Source: an uncultured bacterium (GTDB taxonomy: Bacteria; UBP15; UBA6099; JAJRTR01). Taken from it: DNA of 64,000 nucleotides. Below are positions 4,997 to 24,071 of this stretch, one piece after another. The notes below the pieces were generated by a model, which was given only the letters and a program-made list of their open reading frames with translations, did not search any database and had not been told where the DNA came from. The position numbers were made by a program, and so were the translations under genes. Location: assembly GCA_964595945.1 (NCBI GenBank), contig CAZQSL010000001.1, forward strand, positions 36,930 through 100,929. Direction: 5' to 3'. Numbering within the stretch: position 1 is the first letter of the stretch; each line of letters opens with the position of its first letter.

Positions 4997-5003
4997 AGAA
5001 CAG

Positions 5004-6410
5004 GTGGAGATGGATATTTACAGACCTCAAAATATAGAAGACGCTGTCGTGGCGGTGATCGGACTCAACGTCACGGGGCTCGCCTGCGCGTCGATTCTGC
5101 CTCATTTCGGAGCGGAAGTTGTGCTGTCGGACACACGGCCACTCGCTGAGATCAGGGATAAAGTCATGAGCCTGATCGACTCGGGTTATTCCTATCTGCC
5201 GATCAGTGAAATCGCCTCATTGTCACCAGATTTTATAATTGTCAGTCCCGGTCTCGACCCGCGATGCCGTTCGCTCGATCCGCTCAGAGATCTCGACGCC
5301 GAATGGGTTTCGGAAATCGAACTCGCGAGTCATATCAGCAGAGGCCGCATATTCGCCATAACCGGTACCAATGGTAAAACCACTGCCACTACTCTCGCCG
5401 GCCAGGTGCTCGGCAAAAAGTTTTCCGACGTCCGCGTTTGCGGCAATATCGGCCGCACTTTCATCGAGTCAGTCATCGACTCCACCGACGATACAGTCTA
5501 TGTCATCGAAGTCAGTAGCTATCAGCTCGAAGGCTGTACTTTCTTCAAGCCAGATGTGGCAGTCGAACTCAATCTCAGCGAAGACCATCTCAAACGTCAC
5601 GGCGATATGGATGGCTATGCGGGAGTCAAGGCAAAGATGGTAGCTACGCTCACCGCAGATGACTATGCGGTACTAAATGCTGATGACAGATATGTTTCTG
5701 CGATGGCGGCGGCCACAGCAGGTCGCGTGCTGGAATTCAGCACCAGTCGTGAAGTGGAACAGGGCGCGTACTACGACGGGAAAATGCTCAGGCTGAAAAT
5801 CGATGGAGTGCCCCATGATATCTGTGCCGCTGACGAACTGCTGATCGAGGGAAGTCACAATATTGCCAACGTGCTCGCCATAGCGGCCGGAGCGGCTGCA
5901 ATGGGTGTCAGCGCCCGTGAGATCGCGGAGACGGCAAAGACATTTCGCGGACTCGAACACCGCATCGAGCCGGTCGCGGAGATAAATGGAGTCAGATTCG
6001 TCAACGACTCGAAAGGCACAAATCCCGATTCGGTCTTTGTGGCTCTCGACGCGTTCCGGGACAAGCCGGTCGTGCTGATAGTTGGCGGCGATGACAAGGG
6101 GTTTGAATACACGGCTCTATATAATATCATCGCGCGGCGCGAAGTGCGTACGATCGTTTTGGGCGAAGGCCTTGTAAGGATGGCGCACGAAATGGAGCGG
6201 CGCGGCGATATTGATTTCAGACGTGTGCCGGATATGAAATCTGCTGTCTGGGCAGGATATGACATGCTCGGCGCCGGCGGCGTTGTGCTGCTTTCGCCCG
6301 GTTCGTCGAGCTTTGACTTGTATAAAAACTTCGAAGAACGCGGAAAACATTTTAAATCGGAGGTGGCGGCGCTTGAAGCAGAAGTCTCAAAAACCCGGTC
6401 AGCCTGTTGA
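5004..6410 (+). CDS. murD: UDP-N-acetylmuramoylalanine--D-glutamate ligase
   Basis: P-loop ITGTNGKTT. The N-terminal Rossmann-like domain is typical of MurD. Position after mraY fits. Confidence 0.9.
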   Translation: MEMDIYRPQNIEDAVVAVIGLNVTGLACASILPHFGAEVVLSDTRPLAEIRDKVMSLIDSGYSYLPISEIASLSPDFIIVSPGLDPRCRSLDPLRDLDAEWVSEIELASHISRGRIFAITGTNGKTTATTLAGQVLGKKFSDVRVCGNIGRTFIESVIDSTDDTVYVIEVSSYQLEGCTFFKPDVAVELNLSEDHLKRHGDMDGYAGVKAKMVATLTADDYAVLNADDRYVSAMAAATAGRVLEFSTSREVEQGAYYDGKMLRLKIDGVPHDICAADELLIEGSHNIANVLAIAAGAAAMGVSAREIAETAKTFRGLEHRIEPVAEINGVRFVNDSKGTNPDSVFVALDAFRDKPVVLIVGGDDKGFEYTALYNIIARREVRTIVLGEGLVRMAHEMERRGDIDFRRVPDMKSAVWAGYDMLGAGGVVLLSPGSSSFDLYKNFEERGKHFKSEVAALEAEVSKTRSAC

Positions 6411-7659
6411 CAGACGCTCCGGCCAGCAACCGCCATCGCCGCCGGCGAAGCAGAGTGCTGCTTTCGCCAATTTCGGCACGCCCGATTATACGTTTCTGAT
6501 GATCGTGATACTCCTGACCTGCGTGGGTCTTGTCATGGTCTTCAGTTCGAGTGGCGTCTTTTCGCTCAATACCCAGTCGGACGCACTGTATTATCTCAAG
6601 CAGGAAGCCAAGTGGGTAGCGATGAGCCTTTTTGCGATGGGCTTTATGATGGTGTTCAGCTACAAGCGTTTCAGGAAGCTGGCCCTGTGGGGGCTTGGCC
6701 TTGCGGTGGCGATGCTGGCGGCAGTGCTTGTGCTGCCGGAGAGTCTCGCGCCCACCGTCAACGGCTCCAACCGCTGGCTGCAGATACCTGGGCTGAGGAT
6801 ACATGTCGGCGAATTCGCCAAGTTGACGATGATTGTGTTTTTCGCCGTTTTTCTTTCAAGCAAACAAAGGGATATCAGGCAGTTGCCCAATCTGTTGACG
6901 ATAGTGGGCATCTATGGCGGCATCGGGGTTTTGCTGCTGATGGAGCCTGATTTCGGGATGACGTTTGTGATCGGTCTCATCCTGGTGGCGATGCTGTGCA
7001 TTGCCGGAGTCAACAGCGGTCTGCTACTTGGCGGCATCGCTGCCGGCGTTGTAGGCGGATGGTTTATCGCCATAGCCGAGCCTTACAGATATAAAAGGCT
7101 CATGGCCTTCCGCGATCCGTTCGCCGATGCGGATGGAGTGGGCTATCAGGTCGCCCAGTCGCTGATCGCGATTGGCAACGGAGGATGGTTCGGCCGCGGA
7201 CTGGGGAAAAGTCTCCAGAAGCTGATGTTTCTGCCTGAGCAACATACGGATTTCATATTCTCGATCATAGCCGAAGAACTCGGCATCCTCGGGGTCATGC
7301 TTGTCGTCGGGCTGTTCATAGCCCTTACGGTACAGGGGTTCAAGATCGCGATGAAATGCGAAGACCCGCTGGGTAAATACCTTGTGTTCGGGATTACGTT
7401 CATGATCTCGGCACAGGCGCTTTTCAACATGGGAGTAGCCACGGCTATGCTGCCGGTCAAGGGGCTGACACTGCCGTTCGTCAGCTTCGGCGGTGCGTCG
7501 CTTCTTCTGACTTACGCGGCTGTCGGCATAGTGCTCAATGTGTCGGCCAACTCAAACAGGGAACGGATGAAAAAGAATGAAATGTCTCCTTCTGGCGGTG
7601 GGGGGAACGGGCGGTCACATATTCCCGGCAATAGCCCTCGGCCGTCACGTAATGGATAA
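6373..7659 (+). CDS. ftsW: SEDS family peptidoglycan glycosyltransferase FtsW
   Basis: Ten-TM SEDS protein between murD and murG. The track ORF begins at 6259, inside murD. I prefer the in-frame TTG at 6373, which gives a basic cytoplasmic N-terminus before TM1. An ATG at 6499 is an alternative. The 3' end overlaps murG by 83 nt. Confidence 0.83.
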   Translation: MKQKSQKPGQPVDRRSGQQPPSPPAKQSAAFANFGTPDYTFLMIVILLTCVGLVMVFSSSGVFSLNTQSDALYYLKQEAKWVAMSLFAMGFMMVFSYKRFRKLALWGLGLAVAMLAAVLVLPESLAPTVNGSNRWLQIPGLRIHVGEFAKLTMIVFFAVFLSSKQRDIRQLPNLLTIVGIYGGIGVLLLMEPDFGMTFVIGLILVAMLCIAGVNSGLLLGGIAAGVVGGWFIAIAEPYRYKRLMAFRDPFADADGVGYQVAQSLIAIGNGGWFGRGLGKSLQKLMFLPEQHTDFIFSIIAEELGILGVMLVVGLFIALTVQGFKIAMKCEDPLGKYLVFGITFMISAQALFNMGVATAMLPVKGLTLPFVSFGGASLLLTYAAVGIVLNVSANSNRERMKKNEMSPSGGGGNGRSHIPGNSPRPSRNG

Positions 7660-8683
7660 AATGCCCGATGTGCGTGTGTGCATCGCCGGCAAACGCGGAG
7701 GACAGGAAGAGCGCGCCGCCGCTCTGTACGGGATCGAGTTTCACCCCGTGAAAGTGGCGAAGGCTCCTGCCCGAAAGCTTTCCGCAGGCACCTTGAAATT
7801 TCCAGCCGAAATTGGGTCTGCCGCAGCGACCGGAGTATCGACGATCAAAAAACTGTCCCCCGGTGTTGTCGTGGGATTCGGCGGCTACGTTTCTTTTCCA
7901 GCCACTGTCGGCGCTGCGCTATGTAAGGTGCCGGTCTATATCCACGAGCAAAACGCATTCGCGGGCAAAGCCAACCGGGTGCTCGCACGATTCGCCCGTG
8001 GTGTATTTATCAGCTACGAGGAGACCAGCGGTGTATTCGGGCAAAAGTCGATACTGACAGGCAATCCGTCGCGTTTCGAAAACGTGCCACTCCCCTCGAA
8101 GGAAGAAGCGCGTGTCAAGCTCGGCCTCGACCCGGTAAAGCGCACTGTGTTCGTTTTCGGCGGCAGCCAGGGCGCCCGCAGCATCAATACGGCAGCAGCC
8201 TCATTTGCCGCTTCGCTCGGTGAGCGGGCTGACATACAGATGCTCCACCTTTCGGGCAAGGCCAATTACGAAGCCGTACACGACGCCTATGCCGGGATCA
8301 CTTCACAGGATGGCATCAGAGTCTCCATCCTCGACTACCTCGATGACATGCTCTCGGCCTACTGCGCCGCCGATGTCATCGTGTGCCGCGCCGGAGCTTC
8401 GACGATCGCCGAAACGTGCTCGATCGGCATACCGTCGATCCTCGTACCGTTTCCCTTCGCTGCCGACGATCACCAGCGTTTCAATGCTCGGGCAGTCGCG
8501 CGCAAGGGCGCTGCGATCATGGTGGACGACACGGAATTCACCGGCGAAAGAATGGCCGCCGAAGTACTCGCTCTGATCGACGACCCGGCAGCCTGCGAAA
8601 GAATGACAAAAGCATCCAGAGACTCCTACACGGCCGGCGCGGCCGCGAAGATGCTGAAAACGATCGAAAGCCTGCTCTTGTGA
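7577..8683 (+). CDS. murG: UDP-GlcNAc:undecaprenyl-PP-MurNAc-pentapeptide GlcNAc transferase
   Basis: N-terminal GGTGGH motif (LLAVGGTGGHIFPA) and a GT28 fold. Follows ftsW. Confidence 0.9.
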   Translation: MKCLLLAVGGTGGHIFPAIALGRHVMDKMPDVRVCIAGKRGGQEERAAALYGIEFHPVKVAKAPARKLSAGTLKFPAEIGSAAATGVSTIKKLSPGVVVGFGGYVSFPATVGAALCKVPVYIHEQNAFAGKANRVLARFARGVFISYEETSGVFGQKSILTGNPSRFENVPLPSKEEARVKLGLDPVKRTVFVFGGSQGARSINTAAASFAASLGERADIQMLHLSGKANYEAVHDAYAGITSQDGIRVSILDYLDDMLSAYCAADVIVCRAGASTIAETCSIGIPSILVPFPFAADDHQRFNARAVARKGAAIMVDDTEFTGERMAAEVLALIDDPAACERMTKASRDSYTAGAAAKMLKTIESLLL

Positions 8684-8702: not shown

Positions 8703-9569
8703 ATGGAAATATTGATGATGATGAGTGAAGAAAAAAATGACAACATGCCAATAATTGGCGCATCCCCCGCGCCGGACGCCTCTCCGCGTCCAAAGCAGTC
8801 CGTGGGCACGCCGATGGAGACGACTATGCGCCGCATGAAAAAGCGAAAAGTCCGCGTCTGGCGTGTTGTGCTGCTCGCTTTTCTCGTCATGTGCGGCACT
8901 GTATTCGCTATCATCAACACCGATCCATTCAAAATCCGCACTGTAGAGGTCAGCGGCATCAGACGTGTCAGCGCCGAACAGATATACCGCGACTCTAATA
9001 TCGAAATCGGCGGCAACCTCGTGTGGCTGCGCACCTCGAAAATCAAACGCCGCATCGAACAGCGTCCTCTCGTCACCAGGGCTGTCATCCACAGGATACT
9101 CCCCTCGACTGTCAGCATCATCATCTTCGAGCGCAAGCCCTATGCCTATGTCACTAACGGCAAGGACTATTATCTGATCGACCGCGAGGGCTACGTGCTC
9201 GACCGCGTCGCGGGCATCGGCAACAAACAATTGTTCCGCGTCTACAGCAACAGTGTAAAACCCGCCCAAAGGGGCGAAAAACTCGTGTTTCCCCACTCGC
9301 CGGTATTCGACGATTTCGTGATCATACTCGACAAATACATGGCCGGCCGCTACCAGACCGTACGCTTTGACCGCCACGGCATCAAGCTCACGCTCCGCGA
9401 TGGCACCTACGTACTGCTCGGCAAGGGCAGCGACCTCGAAAAGAAAATTATGCTCGTACCGGTGATCACAGAAAAACTCAATGCCGCGCATGAGGAGTAC
9501 GAAGGCCTGAACCTTGAATACCTGTCAGTGCCGTCATTCATCGAAAAGGAGAAAACGGGCGCACAATGA
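8703..9569 (+). CDS. ftsQ: Cell division protein FtsQ/DivIB (POTRA domain)
   Basis: Single N-terminal TM segment (RVVLLAFLVMCGTVFAI) followed by a POTRA-like beta domain. Lies directly upstream of ftsA in the dcw cluster. Start codon choice is uncertain (8703 or 8715). Confidence 0.7.
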   Translation: MEILMMMSEEKNDNMPIIGASPAPDASPRPKQSVGTPMETTMRRMKKRKVRVWRVVLLAFLVMCGTVFAIINTDPFKIRTVEVSGIRRVSAEQIYRDSNIEIGGNLVWLRTSKIKRRIEQRPLVTRAVIHRILPSTVSIIIFERKPYAYVTNGKDYYLIDREGYVLDRVAGIGNKQLFRVYSNSVKPAQRGEKLVFPHSPVFDDFVIILDKYMAGRYQTVRFDRHGIKLTLRDGTYVLLGKGSDLEKKIMLVPVITEKLNAAHEEYEGLNLEYLSVPSFIEKEKTGAQ

Positions 9570-10156
9570 AACGCTTGGCCGCACTGATAATCTTTTCGAT
9601 CGTGATGGGTATCTGCATAAACCACATCGCGCGCGGCAACCTGCCCGTAGCAAGGCTGTCGGACTCACGCTACTTCTACGATGCACGTACCGAAAACGGT
9701 GAATCCTCCGCACGCATCGCGCGACTCGCGGGCATGACTCCCGTACACGGACAGGGCATCCGGCTCATCGTCGACGACGCCACACGCGACGGCTCCAATT
9801 CAAATGTGCCGGTGGAAAGACTCATCGTACACGAACGCGATCTGATGCTGATACGCAACGAACTTTTCGCCGCTGGCGCGACCGCCATGTCAATCAACGG
9901 CGAACGCATGGTCGCCACCACAGAAATCAGGTGCGTCGGTCCCGCCATAAGGATCAATACCCGCAACACCGCCCCCCCATATTATGTAGACGCGGTGGGC
10001 GACCCGAAAGTGCTCAAGAAAGCCGTCCTCGTCATGGGCGGCCTGTTCGACATCCTGACGATGGAGCGGATTTCCGTGAAAATCGAAGAGAAAGACAATC
10101 TCGTGATCCCGTCACTCATCTCAAGCGTGACGGTGCGCCCGGAGGCTCAGCAATGA
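9566..10156 (+). CDS. DUF881 family protein (YlxW/YlxX-like division-cluster protein)
   Basis: N-terminal TM segment followed by a roughly 170-aa domain. ATGA-coupled to ftsQ. In Bacillus-type clusters this position between divIB and ftsA is occupied by DUF881 proteins. The family assignment is from memory of that architecture, not a search. Confidence 0.55.
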   Translation: MKRLAALIIFSIVMGICINHIARGNLPVARLSDSRYFYDARTENGESSARIARLAGMTPVHGQGIRLIVDDATRDGSNSNVPVERLIVHERDLMLIRNELFAAGATAMSINGERMVATTEIRCVGPAIRINTRNTAPPYYVDAVGDPKVLKKAVLVMGGLFDILTMERISVKIEEKDNLVIPSLISSVTVRPEAQQ

Positions 10157-10485
10157 TCCTGTGTCTCGTCGGACTCGTGATCGGATATTTCATCGGCATG
10201 ACCATGGAAGCGACTTCGCTCGCACGCTTCGGCACGGAAAACGTCATGGTCGTATTCATCGCTATCGCCGATCTGACAGCTCTGATTCTGATGAGAAAAA
10301 ACACACCTATCCTCAGGGGCCTCGCCATCCGTTGTGCGATCTGCGCGGCGGCAATATGGATGGAAGCAAAAACGGATTTTCCCGTAGTTCTTTTATTGAC
10401 CGTACTGTTCACAGCGTCGTTATTCAAGACGCTCACAACAGACGCAATCAGGCAATCGCGGCTGGTGTCAGATGAAAAAGGCTGA
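10153..10485 (+). CDS. Small membrane protein (sbp/DUF1290-like)
   Basis: 110-aa protein with two or three TM segments. ATGA-coupled to the preceding gene and overlaps ftsA by 14 nt. The track lists it only as the tail of a 184-aa ORF starting at 9931. Confidence 0.45.
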   Translation: MILCLVGLVIGYFIGMTMEATSLARFGTENVMVVFIAIADLTALILMRKNTPILRGLAIRCAICAAAIWMEAKTDFPVVLLLTVLFTASLFKTLTTDAIRQSRLVSDEKG

Positions 10486-11719
10486 CGAAAACAGAATAGT
10501 GGCCGGCATAGACATCGGCACATCAAAAGTCTGCGCCCTCGTCGCCCGCGTGGACGAAGCCGGCAAGATCAGTGTCGCCGGCGCTGGCGTCGCGCCCAAT
10601 GACGGCATGAAAAAAGGCCTCGTCGTCGACATCGACAAGGTTTCACACGCGGTCTTTACAGCAGTAGATCAGGCCGAAAAAGCCGCTGGATGCGTCGCCG
10701 AAAACGTCTATGTGACCGTATCCGGCAATCACGTTACTACCAATGCCGGCAGAGGCTCGGCCCCCGTTGCCAATCCTGAACGGGGCGTCGCTCCCGACGA
10801 TGTCCGGCGCGCGCTCGACGCTTCGAAATATCTCTTGATCCCGCCAGACAAAAAGATCATTGGCGTGATCGAAAACGACTTCACTCTCGATGGCCACGGC
10901 GGAGTGACCGACCCGGTAGGCATGGCTGGCTCACACCTTGAGGTCAACGTCCAGATAGTCACCGGAGCCACGGCTTCCGTGCAAAATCTCCTGCGAAGCA
11001 TCGACAAGGTCGGCATAGAGGTCGATGCCATGATGCCCGCAGTGCTCGCCTCAGGCGAAGCCGTACTCAACAGCGACGAAAAGAAAGTCGGAATACTGCT
11101 GATCGATTTCGGCGCTGGCACGACGTCGCTCGCTATGTTTCGCAATGGTTTCATGACCGATGCGAGGGTCATCCCCATCGGCAGTTCACATATAGACAAC
11201 GACATCGCTGTAGTGCTCGGCACATCGCCGGCAGATGCCGAAAAACTAAAAATCGAATACGGCAGCGTATCACCGAAACTCCGCGATGAAAGTACTCCCG
11301 TCGAAGTCACCCTCATCGGACGCGACGAAAAAAACCAGATACCGCGAGGAATGCTCTGTCAGGTGATACAGCCACGTATCGCCGAACTCCTCGACATCAT
11401 CGTCAAGGAACTTCGCGACAGCTTCAGCAACGCCACACCGCCCGCCGGAATTGTCATCACTGGCGGCGGCGCTCACCTGCCCGGCATGATCGAGGCAGTC
11501 GAACAAAAACTCGGCTATCACGTACGACTCGGCAAAACGCTCTACGCGGGCGAAAACGCCGCTCGCCTCGGCGATCCGCGATTTACCGCTGCAGCTGGCC
11601 TCCTGAGATGCGCGGCAGCGAGAGTAGGGAAAATGCGCTATGAGCAAGAATCACAACCGTCCCCCTTCAAAGGAGCCTGGCTCACACTGGTTGCCTTTTT
11701 TAGAGGACTTTTTAAATGA
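10472..11719 (+). CDS. ftsA: Cell division protein FtsA
   Basis: Actin-fold N-terminus [17 protein letters not shown] and an FtsA-specific domain layout. Immediately upstream of ftsZ. Confidence 0.9.
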
Positions 11720-13028
11720 AGTGCCGCCCCCCGACGGCTGGCACGTGCAAGGTAAAAAATCCGACTCCGGCAGACAGCCGGGAGGAACCGATACCCACGG
11801 AGGTGCACAGGTGGAATTCGAACCAAAAGCTGAGAAATTCGCGAAGATAAAAGTCGCTGGTGTCGGCGGTGGCGGCTGCAACGCGGTCAACCGCATGATC
11901 GATGTTGGCGTCGGCGGTGTTGACTTCATCGTCGTCAACACAGACGCTCAGGTGCTCATTGACAGCAAGGCGGCACACAAGCTCCAGATCGGCGGAAAAC
12001 TCACTCGCGGCCTTGGCGCCGGCGCCGACCCCGAAGTCGGCAAACAGGCTGCCGAAGCGAGCGTAAGTGAAATCGAAACATCGCTCGAAGGATCCGACAT
12101 GGTATTCGTCACCTCCGGCATGGGCGGCGGCACCGGTACAGGGGCATCTCCCATAGTTGCGCGCATCGCACGCAAACTCGGCGCTCTCACTGTAGGTGTC
12201 GTCACAAAGCCCTTCGCCTTCGAGGGTAAACGCCGCATGGCTTTCGCCGAACGCGGCATCGAAGCTCTCGCCGCCGAGGTCGACACCCTCATCGTCATCC
12301 CCAATGACAAGCTGCTCGACATCATCAGTCCTGGCACATCGCTCGTCGAAGCTTTCAGGAGCGCCGACGACGTGCTCCGCCAGGGCGTGCAGGGCATTTC
12401 CGATCTCATTACAAAACCCGGTCTTATCAACCTCGACTATGCCGATGTCAAAACCATTATGAAAGACGCCGGCTCCGCTCTTGTCGGCATCGGCATGGCT
12501 TCCGGCGATGACCGCGCCAATCTCGCCGCGCAGCAGGCCATCTCATGTCCGCTGCTCGAAACTTCCATCGAAGGCGCCCGCGGCATTCTTATGAATATCA
12601 CCGGTGGCTCAGACATGAGTCTTCTCGAAGTCCACACCATCGCCCAGGTCATCAACACCGCCGCCTCCGAAGACGCCAATATCATCTTCGGCGCCGTCGT
12701 AGACGAAAAACTCAAGGACGAAATCAGCGTCACTGTCATCGCCACCGGCTTCGGCTCGGCCTCCTATTCGACAAAAAAGGTTTTCGCCCCTACAGTCGTC
12801 GCGCACAAACCCCAGGAGATCGTGTTTTCCAAACCCCTCCGCGACAGAATCCCCGAACCACCGCAACCGAAAACCCCTGTCGACGAAGTTGACACCGTCC
12901 GCGACGAGCCGGCACCCGCGCCGGCCGCTGCTCCCGAGCCCAAGTCCGAACCTCTCCCGCACACCCCTTCCGGCGACGAGCTCGATATCCCTTCATTCCT
13001 TCGCAACCGCAAGAAGAAAGACGACTGA
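11640..13028 (+). CDS. ftsZ: Cell division GTPase FtsZ
   Basis: Tubulin signature GGGTGTG and the [15 protein letters not shown] motif. Conserved C-terminal peptide [11 protein letters not shown]. The ATG at 11640 has an AGGGAA ribosome-binding site (RBS), gives a roughly 65-aa N-terminal extension and overlaps ftsA by 80 nt. Confidence 0.92.
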
Positions 13029-13044
13029 TCACTGGGCGGCCCCG

Positions 13045-14673
13045 ATGCGCGAGTCTCATCTCTACGAAAACACATCGGGCGCCTCCCCGGAAGCAGCGGC
13101 TCTCAAAGTAGCCATCTGCTTCCCAGGCAACTACAGGGTGGGCATGGCAAACCTCGGATTTCTCTGGGTGCGCCATCTCGCCAATTCCATGCAGGAGGTT
13201 CGCTGCGACCGGTTCTTTATGACTGACCGGCAACTTAATAAAAAAACGGCCCTCTTTTCGCCCGATTCCCACATGACACTCGCCGACTACGATGTCGTGG
13301 CGTTTGCCCTGCCCTACGAACCCGGCTATCTGAATGTCCCGGCAATGCTCGACGCTGGCGGCATCCCGGCGCTGGCGTCCACACGTTCGCGTCTGCCACT
13401 CGTGGTCGCAGGCGGCATGGCAGTCAGCGCCAATCCCGAGCCCATGTCCGCAATCCTCGATGCCGTCCTCATCGGCGAGGCCGAGGGAGCGTGGCAGATG
13501 CTGCTCGAAAAGTGCATGGACTACATCACAGGCGGCGCCAGAAAAGCACGTCGCGGACGGCCTTCCGAATCTTTTTTTCGCGCGCTCGCGTCCGAAGGCC
13601 CGTTCTATGTCCCGTCGCTGTATGACTACGCATTCGACGGAAAAGGTATTACTGAAATCACCGACATAGATGGTGGGCCGCCACTCGTGATCGAGTCCAA
13701 TTATGCCACACGCATCGACGCCGCACATTCGCCCCTGATCACCGACGGATCGGCGTTCCCGGGCATGTTCCTCGCAGAGCTCACACGTGGGTGCCCCCAC
13801 AGGTGCCGCTTCTGCCTCGCGGGCCACACGGGCGGAAAATTCCGCATCGCCGAAGGCGCCGCTGACGCAGTCGCACTTTCAAGGGGAAAGGCAAACGGCA
13901 TCGGACTCATCGGCACCGCGTTCACGCGATCGCCCGACACACGCGCAATATGTGCTTTCGCCGTCGAAAACGGTATGCGCGTTTCGTTTTCATCTGTGCG
14001 TCTCGATGCCGGCACGACCGCCCTCATGCGTGAATTTTCCCAAGCGGTCTCGATGGATACTGTCACGATCGCTCCTGAGACGGCTACCGACCGCCTCGGC
14101 GCCATTGTCGGTAAAAACATTTTCGCCGAGATGGAATCATTCGCCGACGCCGCCAGAGAAGCTGGCGTCAAACGGGTGCGCATGTACTACCTGATCGGAG
14201 TGCCGGGAGAAACGGACGGCGATGTGGCTGCCATCGCTGCCCACGCAAAGTCGTTCGGCGTGAAATCCGGTTGCGAGGTCATGGTGAGTGCTACTCCGCT
14301 GATCCCAAAGCCGATGACGCCGATGCAATGGTTCGCTTTCGCTGACGTTGGCGACCTGAAAAGAAAGCGAAAACTGCTAAAGAACACTGCTCGTAAAGAA
14401 GGGCTCGAAGTGAAAGTCGAGGGACTCGCCGAATCATTCACGCAAGCGGTGCTCGCCCGCGGCGACCGTCGCCTTTCGCCCCTGATCGCGGCTTGCGCGG
14501 ACAGTCGGCACGAACCTTTTGAAAATATGATCGCAGCGGCAGGACTCGACGCCTCGTACTGGACACGCGCTCTGCCGCTTGAGGCGATGCTGCCGTGGAG
14601 CACCGTAAGATATGGCCTCGCTGCTGAAGAACTTGAAAAAATATACATGGATACACTCGCAGCCGTGAAATGA
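13045..14673 (+). CDS. Radical SAM protein with B12-binding-like N-terminal domain (TIGR03960-like uncharacterized rSAM family)
   Basis: CxxxCxxC motif (CPHRCRFC). N-terminal VAICFPGNYRVGMANLGFLWV is typical of the B12-binding-like domain of this family. The track ORF starts at 12889, inside ftsZ. The ATG at 13045 lies just past the ftsZ stop. Confidence 0.72.
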   Translation: MRESHLYENTSGASPEAAALKVAICFPGNYRVGMANLGFLWVRHLANSMQEVRCDRFFMTDRQLNKKTALFSPDSHMTLADYDVVAFALPYEPGYLNVPAMLDAGGIPALASTRSRLPLVVAGGMAVSANPEPMSAILDAVLIGEAEGAWQMLLEKCMDYITGGARKARRGRPSESFFRALASEGPFYVPSLYDYAFDGKGITEITDIDGGPPLVIESNYATRIDAAHSPLITDGSAFPGMFLAELTRGCPHRCRFCLAGHTGGKFRIAEGAADAVALSRGKANGIGLIGTAFTRSPDTRAICAFAVENGMRVSFSSVRLDAGTTALMREFSQAVSMDTVTIAPETATDRLGAIVGKNIFAEMESFADAAREAGVKRVRMYYLIGVPGETDGDVAAIAAHAKSFGVKSGCEVMVSATPLIPKPMTPMQWFAFADVGDLKRKRKLLKNTARKEGLEVKVEGLAESFTQAVLARGDRRLSPLIAACADSRHEPFENMIAAAGLDASYWTRALPLEAMLPWSTVRYGLAAEELEKIYMDTLAAVK

Positions 14674-15377
14674 CTGCTGTGGAGATGATGAAAATGAAAA
14701 ATATAATTGCTGGAAACATCAACAGAATACTCGAAGACGTAGCTGATACTGCCGCGCGCTGCGGCAGGAGTGCCGGCGAGATCACTCTCGTGGCAGTGAC
14801 AAAAATGCGCAGCGAGGATGAAGTCATCGCCGTTATGGATGCAGGTATTACAAACATCGGCGAGAACCGCGTGAAAGATGCGTCTGAAAAAGCGCATGTC
14901 ATCCGCGAAGGTGTGACGTTCAGACTGATCGGGCACCTCCAGACCAACAAGGCGGCGCTGGCGGTCAGGATTTTTGACAAGATAGATTCGGTGGACACAG
15001 TGCGGCTCGCGGAAATCATTTCGGAGGAAGCTCTGAAAAAGGGCCGCGGCCCCCTTGAAATACTTGTGCAGGTGAATAGCTCGGGCGAGGAAAGCAAGTC
15101 GGGATTTGAGCCGCAGGAAACCGCAGATGCAGTGGCGGCAATCGCCCTGCTGCCCGGACTGTCAGTAAAGGGACTTATGACAATCGGCCCGCTTACATGG
15201 GACGAAATTGAAATCAGAAAGTCATTTCAGATGATGAATAGGCTTTTCGACGATATAAAAACCGGCCAACCCGGTTTCGACACCCTTTCGATGGGGATGT
15301 CCGGAGACTATCGGATAGCCATCGAAGAAGGCGCGACCATGATAAGGGTCGGCAGCGCGATTTTCGAAAGGAGGTGA
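14670..15377 (+). CDS. yggS: YggS/YlmE family pyridoxal-phosphate homeostasis protein
   Basis: Alanine-racemase-N-like TIM barrel with the conserved LVAVTK lysine region. ATGA-coupled to the upstream gene. Classic partner of sepF. Confidence 0.85.
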   Translation: MTAVEMMKMKNIIAGNINRILEDVADTAARCGRSAGEITLVAVTKMRSEDEVIAVMDAGITNIGENRVKDASEKAHVIREGVTFRLIGHLQTNKAALAVRIFDKIDSVDTVRLAEIISEEALKKGRGPLEILVQVNSSGEESKSGFEPQETADAVAAIALLPGLSVKGLMTIGPLTWDEIEIRKSFQMMNRLFDDIKTGQPGFDTLSMGMSGDYRIAIEEGATMIRVGSAIFERR

Positions 15378-15499
15378 CGATTTTCGCACAGTGGATTTCC
15401 ACACCAGCATCATGGCGGCCTTAAGGCCGCATGACCCCTGCATTTGAGAGAATAATACTACAAGTCTCCCATGAGAGACACGAAAACGGAGGTAACAAA

Positions 15500-15964
15500 G
15501 TGTTTGAAGCAATTTCCCAGAACGCGCTCGTAAAAAAGGTGCTTAATTTCATCACGTTCCAGGAAGATGACGAACAGGAGCAGGGATACCAGCCAGAAGC
15601 GCCGCAGAGCCAGCACACCGCCGCACCCCGCAAGACCGGCAAAGTCCTGCCCTTCACCAACAGCAATCCTATGGCAGTCGCTGTCAACGACCCGAAATCG
15701 ATGGAAGACGCCCGCGAAGTCGCGGACAATCTCCGCAGCAATATGGTCGTGCTGATGAACATCTCCAAGATGGAAAAGGACATGGCGAAAGAAATCCTGT
15801 TCTTCCTCAGCGGCGTGGTGTACGCACTCAATGGCGACTCGAAAAAAATCGGCGACGGTGTTTTTCTCTTCACGCCTCACGGCATCCCGATCCGTGACTT
15901 CGAAGCAGTTCAGGCCGAAGCGAAACCCGCACAGAAAAGCAGTCTTTTCATCGAAGAGCTGTGA
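15500..15964 (+). CDS. sepF: Cell division protein SepF (YlmF)
   Basis: C-terminal SepF domain (VVLMNISKMEKDMAKEILFFLSGVVYALNGDSKKIGDGVFLFTP). A GTG start at 15500 is preceded by a GGAGGT RBS at 15488-15493. The track ORF starts further upstream at 15431. Confidence 0.8.
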   Translation: MFEAISQNALVKKVLNFITFQEDDEQEQGYQPEAPQSQHTAAPRKTGKVLPFTNSNPMAVAVNDPKSMEDAREVADNLRSNMVVLMNISKMEKDMAKEILFFLSGVVYALNGDSKKIGDGVFLFTPHGIPIRDFEAVQAEAKPAQKSSLFIEEL

Positions 15965-16089
15965 CACGGCGGCAAATCTCGTGATGAGTCGCGGGGTGAT
16001 CGACTGATTGCAATGAAATACAGATGACCTGCGCAGACGGTATGCGGTGACGCTCCGTGGGCGTGTGTGTTTGCGACTGGAAGGAACTT

Positions 16090-16902
16090 ATGAAAATCGG
16101 ATTTTTCGGTGTAGGGAAAATGGGAGAGATCATACTTGGCGGATTGATCCGCGAGGGCATGTGCGTTGCGACCGATGTCATGATATTTGACGCCGTGATG
16201 GACAAGGCCGATGATGTGTCTGAGGCACTCGGTGTTGTCGCTGCTTCCGATCCGGCTGATGTGGCGCGCGAATGCGATATGATATTCCTTTGCGTCAAGC
16301 CCGATCAATTCGCGAGCCTTGCGAAATCCATCAGGAATGTTCTGAACGTCCGCGATGATAAACCCTGTTTCGTCAGCATCATGGCCGGTGTGAAAACAGA
16401 CCGCATCATGGATGCACTCGGGTGGGATGACCTCGCTGTCATCCGCGTGATGCCCAATGTCGCATGCACCGTAGGCAGGGGCATGGCAGGCATCGCCGCA
16501 AGTGACGAAGCGGAGGACGAAACGAACGAATTCGTCTTTGATCTCTTTGAAAAACTCGGCGGCGCCGTATGGGTCAAGGAAAAACAGATGGATGCGGTGA
16601 CGGCTGTCAGCGGTAGCGGGCCGGCCTATGTGTTTATGTTTATCGAAGCTCTCACCGATGCGGGAGTGATGATCGGCCTCGACCGCGCTACTTCACAAAA
16701 ACTTGCCGTCCGCACCCTTGCGGGCGCTACCGAAATGGTCAACCAGGAGCTTGGCGACACTCTCACTCTTCGAGCTCAGGTGTCTTCGCCCGGCGGCACA
16801 ACTGCTGCCGCTACGACAGCCCTCGAAAAATTCGGGTTCAGAAATGCCGTCATCGAAGCCGTCACGGCTGCCTGGAAAAAATCAATCGAACTTGGTTCGT
16901 AA
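16090..16902 (+). CDS. proC: Pyrroline-5-carboxylate reductase
   Basis: N-terminal Rossmann motif IGFFGVGKMGEIILGG and the C-terminal P5CR dimerisation domain (SSPGGTTAAATTALE). The ATG at 16090 has a GGAAGG RBS. Confidence 0.85.
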   Translation: MKIGFFGVGKMGEIILGGLIREGMCVATDVMIFDAVMDKADDVSEALGVVAASDPADVARECDMIFLCVKPDQFASLAKSIRNVLNVRDDKPCFVSIMAGVKTDRIMDALGWDDLAVIRVMPNVACTVGRGMAGIAASDEAEDETNEFVFDLFEKLGGAVWVKEKQMDAVTAVSGSGPAYVFMFIEALTDAGVMIGLDRATSQKLAVRTLAGATEMVNQELGDTLTLRAQVSSPGGTTAAATTALEKFGFRNAVIEAVTAAWKKSIELGS

Positions 16903-16921
16903 GAAAAAGGAAGCACTGCAA

Positions 16922-19351
16922 TTGGCTGAAAAGAAACCGGCAAAAAAAACGACCAATGCCTCGAAAAGCACGGGCAAGGGAAAACCGCGCGCGAAAAAAA
17001 ATGCCGCGAAAAAGCCTGCTCCCAATAACATGGTGCTGCGCGAAATCCTTGCTATCCTCGTCACGACATTCGCGATCCTTTCGGCGATCAGTCTTTTCGT
17101 CGGCAAAGACGCAAAGGCGCTGTACGCTATCAGACTCATGTATGCTTCGCTTTTTGGACTGCTGGCATTTACGGCACCCTTACTCGAAATCACCGCTGCA
17201 TTGTGGGTTTTCGCACGCCGGAGAGTACTCGCCCTTTCGATGTTGCACATCGCGATCGTGACTCTGCTCGCGGGATATGTTATCAATGTCGCCATGCACG
17301 CGGACACGATTACCGCATCCGCAAAGGCCGGCGGCCTCATCACGCTTTCGCTCGCATCATTTCTGTCGTCGCAGATCACCCCGGCAGGTGCTTGGGCAGT
17401 GGCAGGCGCGATAGCTCTCATCTACGCGCGGTTCGCGTTCAAGGTCTCGTATATCGAGATCGGGAGAAAGGCAGCGCCTCATGTAGCCGCCGGTGTCGAA
17501 GGCATAAAAAAAGCCGTCGCCGGCGTCGAGGAAACAGCAACTGCAAAAGTGCGCGAAGGCAGCGAAAAACGCCGCGAGAAGGCAAAGGAAATCAAAGAGA
17601 AAAAAGAAAAGGAAATGGAAGAAAAAGTGCGCCGCCTGCAGGAAGAGGAGGCGCGCAAAATGAGATCGGCAGACGCTATAATCGCCGAAGCCGAAGAAAT
17701 CACGCGGGATGCGGCTCCTGCAAGAAAGCCCGATCCCGCGCCGGCTCCACAGGCCGTCCCGCATATCACGCATGATGACAGGAAGGAAGAGCAGACTACC
17801 CTTTCATTTATGGATGACGATCCCGTCGACGAAATATCTGCGGACATGGCGCTCGAAGAAACACAGATCGTCCGCATGGTCGAAGGGGAAGACGGCGAAA
17901 TGATCGAAATTTCATGGCGGCTGCCAAAACCCGAAGACTGGCTCGACGAAGTCAGGGAAAAAGCCGAAGCGGTCATGGACAATTCGATGCGCGACAAGCT
18001 CGAAGATACCCTCAAGAGTTTTCAGGTGCCAGCCCGCATTTCCAACGTTGTCAAGGGGGCATCGTTCACGAGATTTGAGATCGAACTCGAACCCGGCACA
18101 AAAGTTAACCGCATCGTCTCTCTCGAAACCGACATCGCGCTCTCTCTCGCCACTGATTCGAAATCGATCCGCATCGAGGCCCCGATCCCCGGAAAATCCG
18201 CCATCGGCATCGAAGTACCCAATAAAAACAGGGCTGTCGTGCCCATGCGCCACCTCTTCGTGAAACCCGAATTCGCGCGCAACAACACACCTCTGTCATT
18301 CGTACTCGGCGAAGACATCATCGGGCAGGCAGTATTCCCGAGCCTGATCAAGATGCCGCATCTGCTCGTCGCAGGTTCGACCAATTCGGGTAAAAGCGTG
18401 TGTCTCAACTGCATCATTTCGAGCATACTTGCCAAGGAGTCGCCCGACGACATACGTTTTATCATGGTAGACATGAAGCGTGTCGAACTCACCCCATACG
18501 ACGGCGTGCCTCACCTGCTCTCGCCCATCATCACCGAGGCGCAGGAAGCCGCGAGCGCGCTCCGCTGGATATGTGAGGAGATGGATCGCCGCTATAAACT
18601 CTACGCGCAGATGGGCGTGCGCAACATAGACAGCTTCAATGCGAAAATGGAAAATCCCGAAGACAAAATGCACCGCATCGTCGTCGTCATCGACGAACTC
18701 GCCGACCTGATGATCGTATCATCGCCGGCCATGAATATCGAAAATTATATCTGCCGCATCACGCAGCTCGCCCGCGCTACGGGCATACACGCAGTACTCG
18801 CCACTCAGCGTCCCGACACCAAGGTCATCACCGGCACGATCAAAAACAACATCCCATCTCGTATCGCTTTCGGCGTCGCCTCGCAGATCGACTCGCGCAC
18901 GATCATAGATCAGAAGGGCGCGGAGTCACTCCTCGGGCGCGGCGACATGCTCTTTCTGCCATTCGGCTCCAACAAGCTCGAAAGACTCCAGGGCGCGTAC
19001 CTTTCTGACAACGAAGTCAACCGACTCGTGGATTTCTGGAAGGCACAAGTGCTCGACCAGTTCGTGTATCCGCTAAAATTCGACTCCGTAGACCCCGGCG
19101 CAATGGGCGGCGGCGGCAGCGACGAATTCCTCTCCGAAGACGAAAAGCTCTACAAGGCGGCCGTGGAAATAGTAGTGACGACAAGTCAGGCGTCGATTTC
19201 GATGATACAGCGCCGCCTGCGCATCGGCTACAACCGCGCCGCGCGCCTCGTCGAACAGATGGAAGAACGCGGTGTGGTCGGCAGCTACGACGGCAGCCGG
19301 CCCCGGGAAGTGCTGCTCACTAATGATCAGTTCCGCTCGGGCGAATATTGA
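16922..19351 (+). CDS. ftsK: DNA translocase FtsK/SpoIIIE
   Basis: Four N-terminal TM segments, a charged Lys/Glu-rich linker, a motor domain with Walker A GSTNSGKS, and a C-terminal gamma winged helix (ISMIQRRLRIGYNRAARLVEQME). The track ORF starts at 16703 inside proC. I chose the TTG at 16922, which has an AGGAAG RBS. An ATG at 17030 is an alternative. Confidence 0.87.
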   Translation: MAEKKPAKKTTNASKSTGKGKPRAKKNAAKKPAPNNMVLREILAILVTTFAILSAISLFVGKDAKALYAIRLMYASLFGLLAFTAPLLEITAALWVFARRRVLALSMLHIAIVTLLAGYVINVAMHADTITASAKAGGLITLSLASFLSSQITPAGAWAVAGAIALIYARFAFKVSYIEIGRKAAPHVAAGVEGIKKAVAGVEETATAKVREGSEKRREKAKEIKEKKEKEMEEKVRRLQEEEARKMRSADAIIAEAEEITRDAAPARKPDPAPAPQAVPHITHDDRKEEQTTLSFMDDDPVDEISADMALEETQIVRMVEGEDGEMIEISWRLPKPEDWLDEVREKAEAVMDNSMRDKLEDTLKSFQVPARISNVVKGASFTRFEIELEPGTKVNRIVSLETDIALSLATDSKSIRIEAPIPGKSAIGIEVPNKNRAVVPMRHLFVKPEFARNNTPLSFVLGEDIIGQAVFPSLIKMPHLLVAGSTNSGKSVCLNCIISSILAKESPDDIRFIMVDMKRVELTPYDGVPHLLSPIITEAQEAASALRWICEEMDRRYKLYAQMGVRNIDSFNAKMENPEDKMHRIVVVIDELADLMIVSSPAMNIENYICRITQLARATGIHAVLATQRPDTKVITGTIKNNIPSRIAFGVASQIDSRTIIDQKGAESLLGRGDMLFLPFGSNKLERLQGAYLSDNEVNRLVDFWKAQVLDQFVYPLKFDSVDPGAMGGGGSDEFLSEDEKLYKAAVEIVVTTSQASISMIQRRLRIGYNRAARLVEQMEERGVVGSYDGSRPREVLLTNDQFRSGEY

Positions 19352-19472
19352 ACTTTTCCGACAAACGCTCCGGACTCTCCGTCAGATTCCGGCTGGCAGA
19401 CAGGCAGTACCCAAACCAGTTCTCATCTTTACGGGCGATAGCCCGCAAAGTTGCGATCAGTATACCCCCTGA

Positions 19473-19499
19473 AGCTCCCCACGCGGGAGCTTTTTTTTT
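19473..19499 (+). terminator. Rho-independent terminator downstream of ftsK
   Basis: GC hairpin agctccc-cacgc-gggagc followed by a 9-nt T run. Confidence 0.6.
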
Positions 19500-20361: not shown

Positions 20362-22140
20362 ATGAAAATCTGTAGAAGCGCATATCTGCTGTTTGCCCTC
20401 ATGCTCATGGTAACGGCAACCCCCGTCATGGCAGAGGATATGGCACGAGTCACATCGCAGGACGAAGTGATTGTCAAGGCGATCGATGTCGCCGGCAACT
20501 ACGAAATCACTGACGATGAAATCCTCGCCTCCGTCCTGACCAAAGTCGGCGAGCCCCTCTCGACTGAAAGCCTCGAAATCGATCTGCAGAAGATTTTCGA
20601 CCTCGGGTATTTTTCAAAAGATGTCAAGGCAAGCCTTTCGGAATATGACGGCGGGGCCAAAGTGACATTCAATGTCGAGGAAAACCCCGTAATTAACGAT
20701 ATTGTTTTCGACGATGCGAAATCAATACCTGCAGCGGACCTGCGTGACCAGATGAAGTCTGTCGTCAACAAACCGCTCAACAGCAATACGCTCAGGACCG
20801 ATATCGAGACGATCGAAAAATACTACAGCGCCAAGGGCTATCTCGCCGCCAGGGTGATCGACGCCAGGATGGACGAAAACAGGACGATACACATCGTCGT
20901 TTCCGAAGGCGTGATCAAGGCGATCAAGGTCGCGTATTTTTCGAAGGGCGATGACGAATCAAATCCCGAAGGCAGCCCCGAACAGTCGCAGATACTCGAC
21001 AACGGCAAGACAAAGCCCTATGTCGTCACCCGCGAGATGAAGACAAAACCGGGCGATGTATATAACACGCAGAAGATCAGCAAAGACCTCCAGAGAATAT
21101 ATAACCTCGGGTTTTTCGAAGATGTGCGCACAAGCATAGAAGCCGCCGAAGACCCCGGAGAAGTAGTGCTCGTCATCGAGGTCGAAGAGTCGCAGACAGG
21201 CTCATACGGATTCGGCGCGGGCTACAGCAACAGCACCGGATTCACCGGCTACCTCTCGGTGTCCGACCGCAATCTGCGTGGCAAGGGCCGTAGGGCCGAC
21301 GCAAAACTCGAATTCGGCGGCAGCGCCGACAGTTTCGAAATCGGATACTTCGAACCCTGGTTCGACAAAAAACAGACAAGCGTCGAAACTACCCTTTACA
21401 ACACTGTCAAGGAAAATCTCGACTATGGACTCGGCGGCGTCTATTCCCCGGACTACGAAGAGCGCCGCACCGGTTTCACATTCACCGTCGGCCGGCCACG
21501 CACGGATTACACAAAGGTTTTTCTCGGGCTCAAGGCCGAACGCATCAACGTCGACCCCGAAGAATTCGACTACCTCGACGGCTCCTCGCGCAGCATCACG
21601 GGCACTATCAGGACAGATACGCGCGACAATGTTTTTAACCCCGGCACTGGCCGCCTCGACTCTCTTTCGCTCGAACTCAACGGCATGTTTCTCGGCGGTG
21701 ACTATGACTTCGAAAAAATGAGCTTCGATCTCCGCCGCTTCCGCAAAGTCACAAAGAAGCAGACCATCGCGGTCCGCATGCTGATGGGATACTCGTGGGA
21801 CGACATCCCGGCGTTCGAATACTTCGACCTCGGCGGCGTCAACTCCATCAGAGGTTATGACGAAGACGAATACTCGGGTACGAAAATGATCCTTTACAAT
21901 GCCGAATACCGATTCACCCTTTCCGGCAATCTCTCGGCCGCGATCTTTGCCGACGCCGGCGACGCTTGGGGCAAAGGCGAAACTCTCGAACTCTCCCCCA
22001 TGAAATACCAGAAATCCATCGGCGCCGGCATCAGACTCAAAATCCCCCAATTCGGCATCGGCCCTGTCAGACTCGACTACGCCTACGCCCTTTCGGCGGA
22101 AGACACGAAGATTCACTTCGGCTTCGGACACATGTTTTAA
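20362..22140 (+). CDS. bamA: Omp85/BamA family outer membrane protein assembly factor (short form, reduced POTRA number)
   Basis: Signal peptide, POTRA-like repeats, and a C-terminal beta-barrel with alternating hydrophobic strands ending in a terminal Phe (GFGHMF). GGAGGAG RBS. Followed by skp and lpxD, the canonical order. Confidence 0.83.
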   Translation: MKICRSAYLLFALMLMVTATPVMAEDMARVTSQDEVIVKAIDVAGNYEITDDEILASVLTKVGEPLSTESLEIDLQKIFDLGYFSKDVKASLSEYDGGAKVTFNVEENPVINDIVFDDAKSIPAADLRDQMKSVVNKPLNSNTLRTDIETIEKYYSAKGYLAARVIDARMDENRTIHIVVSEGVIKAIKVAYFSKGDDESNPEGSPEQSQILDNGKTKPYVVTREMKTKPGDVYNTQKISKDLQRIYNLGFFEDVRTSIEAAEDPGEVVLVIEVEESQTGSYGFGAGYSNSTGFTGYLSVSDRNLRGKGRRADAKLEFGGSADSFEIGYFEPWFDKKQTSVETTLYNTVKENLDYGLGGVYSPDYEERRTGFTFTVGRPRTDYTKVFLGLKAERINVDPEEFDYLDGSSRSITGTIRTDTRDNVFNPGTGRLDSLSLELNGMFLGGDYDFEKMSFDLRRFRKVTKKQTIAVRMLMGYSWDDIPAFEYFDLGGVNSIRGYDEDEYSGTKMILYNAEYRFTLSGNLSAAIFADAGDAWGKGETLELSPMKYQKSIGAGIRLKIPQFGIGPVRLDYAYALSAEDTKIHFGFGHMF

Positions 22141-22164
22141 GCCGTGATCTCTGGAGGTGACTTA

Positions 22165-23487: not shown

Positions 23488-23519
23488 TCCCCGCCAATAT
23501 CGAAAGGAGCAATAAAGTA

Positions 23520-24071
23520 ATGAACAGAATGTGGAAAACCCTGATACCGGGTATCGCAATCATCCTCACCGTAGCAGCAGGCATCATCTACCTCCAATCC
23601 GGCAAAGCTGTCGCCGGCAGCCATGTAGTCGGCTATGTCGACTCCGACTCCATCCTCGAAGCCTACGCCCCGGCAATCGCAGTGCACAACGAGCTCGGCC
23701 AGCTCCAGAAAAAAAATGAAGACGCCCTCCGCGAAAAAATCACCGCAAAATTCGGCACCGGCGACCCCTCCCTCCTGCCCAAGGAATCCCAGATGGAAAT
23801 ACAGAAAATGATCGAAGAAGCCGAAGCTTCATACCAGTCCCAGATGGAAGACCTCCGCAACCGCAAATGGACGCCCATCGTCGAACAGGTTCATTCCGCA
23901 ATGGAAAAGGTCGCCGCTCAGGAAGGCACCGATGTCGTACTTGACCGCTCAGCCGTACTCGCTGGCGGTGTCGACCTTACACAAAATGTCATCGACTACC
24001 TCGGCAAACAACAACCCGGAGCCGCCCCCACTGCAGCGCCGGCCCAGCCTGCCGCACCTCCAAAAAAATGA
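23520..24071 (+). CDS. skp: Periplasmic chaperone Skp/OmpH family
   Basis: AAGGAG RBS. A signal peptide followed by a roughly 150-aa coiled-coil protein (VVGYVDSDSILEAYAPAIAVHNELGQLQKKNEDALREK). Positioned between bamA and lpxD. Confidence 0.7.
   Translation: MNRMWKTLIPGIAIILTVAAGIIYLQSGKAVAGSHVVGYVDSDSILEAYAPAIAVHNELGQLQKKNEDALREKITAKFGTGDPSLLPKESQMEIQKMIEEAEASYQSQMEDLRNRKWTPIVEQVHSAMEKVAAQEGTDVVLDRSAVLAGGVDLTQNVIDYLGKQQPGAAPTAAPAQPAAPPKK

Follow-up and report, generated by a model that had tools for sequence, protein, structure and literature searches.

A predicted radical SAM enzyme encoded directly after ftsZ, and its dcw-linked relatives across bacterial phyla

Why does a gene for a radical S-adenosylmethionine (SAM) enzyme stand in a bacterial cell division operon? 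The question is raised by a 64,000-nt stretch of DNA from an uncultured bacterium (GTDB lineage Bacteria; UBP15; UBA6099; JAJRTR01; contig CAZQSL010000001.1, positions 36,930 to 100,929), called the window below, in which a radical SAM (rSAM) gene follows ftsZ and precedes yggS (ylmE) and sepF. Few bacterial gene strings are as well studied or as highly conserved as the division and cell wall (dcw) cluster, yet a radical SAM gene within it is mentioned in no searchable paper. The original prediction had taken co-transcription with the Z-ring genes as a sign of a cell-envelope or division-linked function. Our analysis indicates that the gene is not a one-off insertion: a paralogue clade, to which we assign its product by sequence, holds the ftsZ-ylm slot in at least six phyla (Desulfobacterota, Negativicutes, Nitrospirota, Poribacteria, Ignavibacteria and Chloroflexota, in addition to the window's uncultured lineage).

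In the window, the rSAM gene is part of a tightly spaced, co-directional string. Its ATG lies 17 nt past the final base of the ftsZ stop codon, its own stop codon overlaps the yggS start as ATGA, and sepF, proC and ftsK follow; this layout had been predicted, could be read directly in the sequence and, from yggS onwards, was supported by hidden Markov model (HMM) matches. A canonical Shine-Dalgarno sequence was not found ahead of the rSAM start, where there is only a weak GGGCGG, compared with GGAGG for ftsZ. No terminator-like hairpin was found on the + strand between ftsZ and ftsK, and the first strong one, located beyond ftsK, likely marks the end of a long dcw-ylm-ftsK transcription unit. 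The 16-nt spacer, the ATGA overlap and the lack of a terminator before the end of ftsK would fit one ftsZ-rSAM-yggS-sepF-proC-ftsK transcript with translational coupling. A longer rSAM open reading frame (ORF) starting at TTG 12889 was unsupported, as an alignment of 17 sequences puts the N-terminus at ATG 13045. The GC content of the gene (0.59-0.60) was the same as that of the neighbouring genes. Because of this agreement and because the synteny is old, recent horizontal insertion of the gene is unlikely.

The synteny holds among the closest relatives, which are few. In the protein database, only 13 proteins were 40-47% identical to the window protein; every one came from a metagenome or a metagenome-assembled genome (MAG), and the closest of them came from unclassified MAGs such as bacterium ADurb.Bin236. 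The next tier, at 32-33% identity, included a Veillonella parvula protein annotated as TIGR03960 family. When 1.84 billion cluster representatives were searched exhaustively, 1498 matched at E<1e-30, and only four clusters lay above ~37% identity, one of which was the query's own. We examined the synteny in six relatives of the window clade at 38-47% identity (P0002, P0007, P0009, P0013, P0014 and P0121). The order ftsZ-rSAM-yggS-sepF-proC was present in the window and in all six, and ftsK came next wherever the contig was long enough. The ftsZ-rSAM spacers of the relatives were 2-15 nt, and their spacers and overlaps were generally short; the exceptions were L091 (117 nt between ftsZ and the rSAM gene, and another spacer of 253 nt) and L008, where the ftsZ call was disrupted. 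The proline biosynthesis gene proC was constant in the yggS-sepF string of the window clade and of several Negativicutes loci, so the string does carry genes without an obvious division role.

Is this placement peculiar to one uncultured lineage? A genome scan with the window protein as the sole query found no relative. When alignment A1 was the query of a pattern scan in which each GTDB species was represented by one genome, 80 loci at 26-34% identity were obtained; the window's own lineage was not recovered among these species representatives. Local searches of the 80 loci used the window proteins as well as seeds for YlmD, YlmH and DUF2344, and a neighbour-joining tree was built from 88 family members. 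The tree split into two clades. In the first, which includes Clostridia, Halanaerobiales, Myxococcota, Actinomycetes and Anaerolineae, a DUF2344 gene (PF10105, TIGR03936) was always immediately downstream of the rSAM gene or fused to it, and a Peptidase_M50 gene was often upstream. DUF2344 has a pseudouridine-synthase fold. In Clostridium aceticum, the gene order around this DUF2344-linked pair was mreC-mreD-PBP2-minCDE-mgsA-M23-M50-rSAM-DUF2344-RNaseG-L21-Prp-L27-Obg-YhbY.

Members of the second clade were linked to the dcw cluster. In Desulfobacterota, Poribacteria and Ignavibacteria, ftsZ was directly upstream; the gap was estimated at 21-127 nt for eight loci and at 264-1107 nt for another five. 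In Negativicutes, ylmD-yggS-sepF(-proC)-ylmH was directly downstream; ylmD-yggS occupied this position in one Nitrospirota MAG and ylmD in one Caldilineaceae MAG. Among dcw-linked loci with enough flanking sequence, ftsZ was upstream in 13 of 33, ylmD or yggS was downstream in 11 of 31, and at least one of the two arrangements was present in 24 of 36, compared with none of the DUF2344-linked loci. The synteny on which the original prediction was built is thus conserved in close and in many distant relatives. For the window protein, the HMM of the dcw-linked clade gave 407.1 bits and that of the DUF2344-linked clade 290.5 bits, and the mean pairwise phmmer scores were 243 and 190 bits, respectively. 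By these sequence scores, it is a member of the dcw-linked clade. The window clade sits on a long branch of the tree and was the only group seen in which ftsZ and yggS are both direct neighbours of the rSAM gene and ylmD is missing.

Two Deltaproteobacteria MAGs carried genes of both clades. In L021 (7235-12672), ftsZ, a dcw-type rSAM gene and a DUF2344-type rSAM gene were in tandem, and in L010 (198-7759) the two types were ~3 kb apart, the second being fused to DUF2344. These loci indicate that the two clades are true paralogues. In a Negativicutes MAG (L022, 5148-8921), a hypothetical gene and nrdR, nrdD and nrdG were located between ftsZ and the dcw-type rSAM gene; nrdD and nrdG encode the anaerobic ribonucleotide reductase and its radical SAM activase.

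A persistent gene order could also have a purely historical cause. The enzyme might serve an unrelated small-molecule or cofactor metabolism, with no tie to division or RNA, and have been retained in an ancient and rarely rearranged string, as proC has been. The presence of proC and yggS in the same operon is consistent with this explanation, as are the 12 of 36 dcw-type members found elsewhere in the genome, the nrdR-nrdD-nrdG insertion, from which it appears that the region tolerates unrelated genes, and the small-molecule enzymes AprD4, CysS, TokK and OxsB among the structural neighbours of the protein. However, the ATGA overlap and the short spacers were kept across relatives that are 38-47% identical, the linkage lasts over several phyla although the flanking genes change, and neighbour scans revealed no biosynthetic-cluster partners next to the gene. 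We regard historical retention as somewhat unlikely.

The protein itself carries the marks of a radical SAM enzyme. It is 542 residues long (540 in the original prediction), and the predicted CPHRCRFC motif occupies residues 250-257 (nt 13792-13815, + strand), where C250-x3-C254-x2-C257 correspond to the ligands of the SAM-binding [4Fe-4S] cluster. These three cysteines were invariant among the 88 family members. Pfam Radical_SAM (PF04055) matched residues 246-398 above its gathering threshold, and the partial TIM-barrel fold was present. Radical_SAM_N2 (PF19864) matched residues 39-190 over the full model length (98.9 bits compared with a 29-bit cut-off); this match and a Rossmann-type fold agree with the B12-binding-like N-domain that had been proposed. 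Conserved residues of the barrel core include S317/R319, A343-P-E345, K357 and the strand motif Y381..G385xP387xE389, and the C-domain contains the family-wide motifs KPxTPxQW (422-429), RGDR (472-475) and PW (517-518). With these and the Cys triad included, ~60 positions were at least 93% conserved across the 88 sequences of both paralogue clades. The window protein keeps all but four of them, and those four are conservative replacements. With the near-invariant residues retained, the enzyme appears fit for catalysis, and a common chemistry of the two clades is probable. One feature is missing: the terminal Cx3-5Cx2CGxC (or CRxxCxGC) motif, carried by most members of both clades, is absent in the window protein and its clade and has been lost in a few other sublineages.

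The loss of this Cys motif, together with the long branch, might suggest that the protein is mainly a non-catalytic regulator or scaffold, for example a moonlighting division modulator for which QueE offers a precedent (PMC4974570), and that its radical chemistry is lost or secondary. In contrast to this expectation, the protein retains the Cys triad and almost every other position that is invariant in the family, and the same conservation was found in the 13 relatives at 40-47% identity, which argues for purifying selection on catalysis. A mainly non-catalytic role is very improbable in our judgement.

The predicted structure resembles known radical SAM enzymes. A confident AlphaFold2 model of the window protein (predicted local distance difference test, 87.2; predicted template modelling score, 0.90) ranked MgmA first among structural matches (9ccb, score 22.1, 355 residues aligned, 2.9 Å), followed by CysS (9n1b, 18.9), RimO (4jc0, 18.4), MiaB (7mjv, 17.1), TsrM (6wte, 16.9), AprD4 (6fd2, 16.8) and TokK (7kdx, 15.3), and Foldseek gave the same ranking. 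MgmA was also the best solved relative by sequence (profile E=5.7e-6). The N-domain also resembled free corrinoid-binding proteins when compared alone. A cobalamin-binding-domain fold of the Rossmann type preceding the radical SAM barrel is a class B feature, and the modelled protein has it; in its predicted architecture, it matches class B, cobalamin-type radical SAM enzymes as well as methylthiotransferases. Sequence and model together point to a functional cytoplasmic enzyme of three parts, namely a Rossmann module, a barrel and a helical C-domain.

Assignment to a named family was less straightforward. The original prediction had pointed to TIGR03960 ('B12-binding radical SAM protein', 'rSAM_fuse_unch'), and this was indeed the best NCBIfam match (228.4 bits, E=1.6e-67, residues 16-533), yet the score missed the curated cut-off of 462.3 bits. 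With a score below the cut-off, no DUF2344 partner in the 64-kb window and no C-terminal Cys motif, the window protein is best described, on its sequence, as a divergent variant inside the dcw-linked paralogue clade and not as TIGR03960 proper. Characterised families fitted far worse, including coproporphyrinogen oxidase, which the original prediction had named as a family that would speak against it. The coproporphyrinogen dehydrogenase HemN/HemZ model (TIGR03994) gave 15 bits compared with a cut-off of 321.4 bits, and YgiQ/UPF0313 (TIGR03904), the JGI label of relatives P0013 and P0014, gave 17 bits (E=0.0017) compared with 462.35 bits. HpnR and the other named B12-rSAM families were rejected in the same way, all of these models, HemZ and YgiQ included, scoring 15-38 bits against cut-offs of 251-650 bits. 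A methylthiotransferase of the MiaB/RimO/MtaB type was rejected since both the auxiliary-cluster Cys triad and the TRAM domain are absent. C54 is the sole invariant cysteine of the N-domain, where methylthiotransferases need three to hold an auxiliary [4Fe-4S] cluster, and this excludes a MiaB-like cluster there. Pfam gave no TRAM match, and helices are predicted for most of the C-terminal 120 residues.

The description of the family as functionally uncharacterised agrees with the literature: searches found no paper on TIGR03960, PF19864, TIGR03936 or PF10105, and none combining radical SAM with ftsZ and dcw or with RNase G/L21/L27. A search for radical SAM and sepF returned unrelated papers only, including a Clostridioides difficile item that concerns a DUF512 protein. 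The sole substantive mention of DUF2344 that we found was its Pfam clan placement.

What, then, could the enzyme act on? Our preferred reading, held tentatively and at somewhat below even confidence, is a radical attack on a macromolecule, most probably an RNA nucleotide, with the dcw slot coupling synthesis of the enzyme to growth and division. In such a mechanism, the [4Fe-4S] cluster at the Cys triad would reductively cleave SAM to a 5′-deoxyadenosyl radical, which would abstract a hydrogen from a C-H bond of the substrate, and a methyl group might be transferred from cobalamin bound in the N-domain. Judging from the sister clade, the substrate would most likely be a nucleotide of ribosomal RNA (rRNA) or transfer RNA (tRNA). 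The enzyme would be tied to growth and division through its gene position and would not be part of the Z-ring. We propose RNA because the sister clade, with which the ~60 near-invariant positions are shared, always pairs with the pseudouridine-synthase-fold DUF2344, and because the C. aceticum rSAM-DUF2344 pair adjoins RNase G, L21, L27, Obg and YhbY. In addition, the ylm genes beside the dcw-linked clade include ylmH, whose product is an S4-type RNA-binding protein, and one paper reports evidence that several proteins of the PLPBP family, which includes YggS, bind RNA (PMC13102913). The mean net charge of the C-domain was +4.5 and +7.5 in dcw-linked clades and approximately -1.4 in the DUF2344-linked clade; a basic C-domain weakly supports the RNA reading. 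YlmD, which is tightly coupled to the rSAM gene in Negativicutes, could, as a speculation, remove 5′-deoxyadenosine, an inhibitory by-product of radical SAM enzymes. YlmD is a member of the YfiH/FAMIN family, which has methylthioadenosine phosphorylase and adenosine deaminase activities.

Several observations weigh against an RNA substrate linked to growth through the dcw slot. DUF2344 was absent from the 64-kb window, in searches by phmmer and with an HMM from 30 sequences, and from the dcw-type loci, and one third of the dcw-type members (12 of 36) adjoin neither ftsZ nor ylm genes. The C-domain of the window protein has a net charge of only +2. Since L010 and L021 carry both paralogues, the two clades probably differ in function, and the RNA inference may not transfer from one to the other. 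The chemistry of the window clade may also differ given its missing C-terminal Cys motif, and MgmA, the best structural match, modifies a protein rather than RNA. Beyond a radical SAM enzyme in an ftsZ operon, we infer the substrate, the cofactor and the transcript.

A protein substrate leads back to the function originally predicted. In a direct division or envelope role, the enzyme would covalently modify FtsZ, SepF, FtsA or a septal peptidoglycan or lipid precursor and would be co-translated with ftsZ for this reason. The gene is directly after ftsZ in Desulfobacterota, Poribacteria and Ignavibacteria, at the gaps given above, and directly before ylmD-yggS-sepF in Negativicutes, Nitrospirota and the Caldilineaceae MAG. 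The window and the six relatives examined from its clade have ftsZ on one side of the gene and yggS-sepF on the other, and even the sister clade adjoins mreCD-PBP2-minCDE. Protein modification has structural parallels in MgmA and in RimO, which modifies a ribosomal protein, and a radical SAM enzyme, QueE, blocks septation in Escherichia coli when induced (PMC4974570). However, the divisome partner is not constant: the Desulfobacterota loci after ftsZ showed no sepF or ylm genes, and those of Negativicutes had no adjacent ftsZ. FtsZ and SepF are not known to undergo radical post-translational modification, which also counts against this role, as does the pseudouridine-synthase-fold partner of the sister clade, which points elsewhere. 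The division roles of proC and yggS, which share the operon, are absent or marginal, and one study reports that Streptomyces venezuelae can dispense with ylmD and ylmE (PMC5701809).

The division-linked function is therefore one of several readings. The synteny behind it is real, and the sister clade points to RNA; guilt by association is weak here because the operon also carries proC and yggS, for which no division role is established. We consider a direct division or envelope role unlikely. The more specific view that the dcw-linked clade represents an unrecognised ancient dcw accessory gene of anaerobes, whose product, a radical SAM enzyme that may depend on cobalamin, covalently modifies a septal component such as FtsZ or SepF, we consider more doubtful still.

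The features of the locus are listed in Table 1. The string runs in one direction (+) from a penicillin-binding protein (PBP) transpeptidase gene through two Mur ligase genes (murE- and murF-like) to the end of ftsK at 19351. Three long ORFs occupy 4004-7659 of the window, and the corresponding stretch of the relatives contains mraY, murD and ftsW. The small membrane-protein ORF ahead of ftsA occupies the position of Bacillus sbp, between the DUF881 gene and ftsA. It had no significant Pfam match, and ORFs of 104-123 residues, also without Pfam matches, were found at its place in four relatives' loci (L002, L004, L008 and L090). Some start codons differ from those of the mechanical ORFs. The true ftsZ start is probably the GTG at 11811, which has a GGAGG at 11799-11803 ahead of it; FtsZ of a relative aligns only from residue 58 of the mechanical ORF (first ATG 11640, 80-nt overlap with ftsA), which is probably 57 codons too long. 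For proC, the ATG at 16087 (MKIGFFG) is the probable start, compared with GTG 16057 in the mechanical ORF. The ftsK start is uncertain, as its ORF opens at 16703, overlapping proC, and FtsK of the relatives is 784-801 residues long. At Rfam gathering thresholds, no RNA family was found in the 64-kb window.

Table 1. Features of the dcw-ylm-ftsK region, with window coordinates
Feature	Coordinates	Strand	Basis and remarks
murG	7577..8683	+	phmmer seed from the window ORF matches MurG in related loci; Glyco_transf_28 here in relatives
ftsQ/divIB	8703..9569	+	POTRA_1-type in relatives
DUF881 protein gene (YlxW/YlxX-like)	9566..10156	+	Pfam PF05949, E=2.5e-37
Hydrophobic membrane-protein ORF, 110 residues	10153..10485	+	Overlaps the DUF881 gene stop (ATGA) and the ftsA start
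ftsA	10472..11719	+	Pfam FtsA, SHS2_FTSA
ftsZ	11811..13028 (stop 13026-13028)	+	Pfam Tubulin, FtsZ_C
ftsZ-rSAM spacer	13029..13044	+	16 nt; sequence; terminator-free; Shine-Dalgarno-like element weak
Radical SAM enzyme gene, dcw-linked clade of TIGR03960-like family	13045..14673	+	542 residues, 58.4 kDa
N-terminal Rossmann/flavodoxin-like 'B12-binding-like' domain	13093..13614	+	Residues ~17-190
Radical SAM partial TIM-barrel core	13762..14304	+	Residues ~240-420; PF04055, model, conservation
C-terminal domain, mostly helical	14305..14670	+	Residues 421-542 (model)
yggS/ylmE (pyridoxal phosphate-binding protein)	14670..15377	+	TIGR00044, 197.5 bits (cut-off 106 bits)
sepF	15431..15964	+	PF04472, E=1.5e-23
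proC (pyrroline-5-carboxylate reductase)	16087..16902	+	Pfam P5CR_dimer, F420_oxidored; 266-271 residues in relatives
ftsK	16895..19351	+	Pfam FtsK_alpha, FtsK_SpoIIIE, FtsK_gamma
Intrinsic terminator-like hairpin	19471..19493	+	9-bp stem, 5 GC pairs, T-run; 120 nt past the ftsK stop

Other parts of the window give an idea of the host. An outer-membrane biogenesis cluster (20362-25153, +) contains genes for BamA (20362-22140) and OmpH/Skp (23460-24071), interleaved with two ORFs without a Pfam match (22144-23487, 447 residues; 24068-25153, 361 residues). A group A6 NADH-dependent [FeFe] hydrogenase is encoded at 60848-62932 (-), with a score of 738 bits, just below the 765-bit cut-off of NF040763. 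The BamA and OmpH/Skp homologues and the hydrogenase, as judged from sequence, indicate that the host is an anaerobic diderm bacterium. The hydrogenase fits an anaerobic life, as one would expect where oxygen-sensitive radical SAM enzymes are present. At 40479-43157 (-), the window also encodes an 892-residue protein, of which the C-terminal ~170 residues weakly match GldK/PorK, EgtB and SenA models and the other ~700 residues have no match.

Neither the linkage of a whole radical SAM clade to the dcw cluster nor the pseudouridine-synthase fold of DUF2344, with which the sister clade is paired, seems to have been described in the searchable literature. The linkage makes a defined target of a gene otherwise annotated only as 'radical SAM protein', and orthologues in the culturable Veillonella and Geobacter may permit genetic tests. 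The fold of the partner is a first functional clue for the whole TIGR03960/TIGR03936 system. If the enzyme modified RNA, a possible unidentified rRNA or tRNA modification would have its expression tied to division. If it modified a divisome protein, this would be new biology, with the bacterial divisome providing its first case of radical post-translational modification.

Among known proteins, the closest counterparts of the window protein are the dcw-linked paralogues of Negativicutes (e.g. V. parvula) and Desulfobacterota, which share its clade and genomic slot. They are only 30-34% identical to it, and most keep the C-terminal Cys motif; in Negativicutes, the rSAM gene and yggS are separated by ylmD, a gene missing from this place in the window clade. 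With the TIGR03960 family, the window protein shares the three-part architecture (PF19864 N-domain, radical SAM core and C-domain) and the ~60 near-invariant positions, including KPxTPxQW, RGDR and PW. It differs from that family in its score below the cut-off, in lacking the terminal Cys motif and in having no adjacent or fused TIGR03936/DUF2344 partner, and TIGR03960 members of named genomes are only 26-34% identical to it. MiaB and RimO are methylthiotransferases with three N-domain cysteines and a TRAM-like beta C-terminus, in contrast to the single cysteine and helical C-terminus found here. MgmA (the methyl-coenzyme M reductase glutamine C-methylase, 9ccb), CysS, TsrM and TokK are 12-17% identical to the window protein and differ in the C-terminal domain. 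Like these cobalamin-dependent class B enzymes, the window protein may bind cobalamin and transfer a methyl group. QueE of E. coli resembles it in another respect, as a radical SAM enzyme for which an effect on cell division is documented (PMC4974570).

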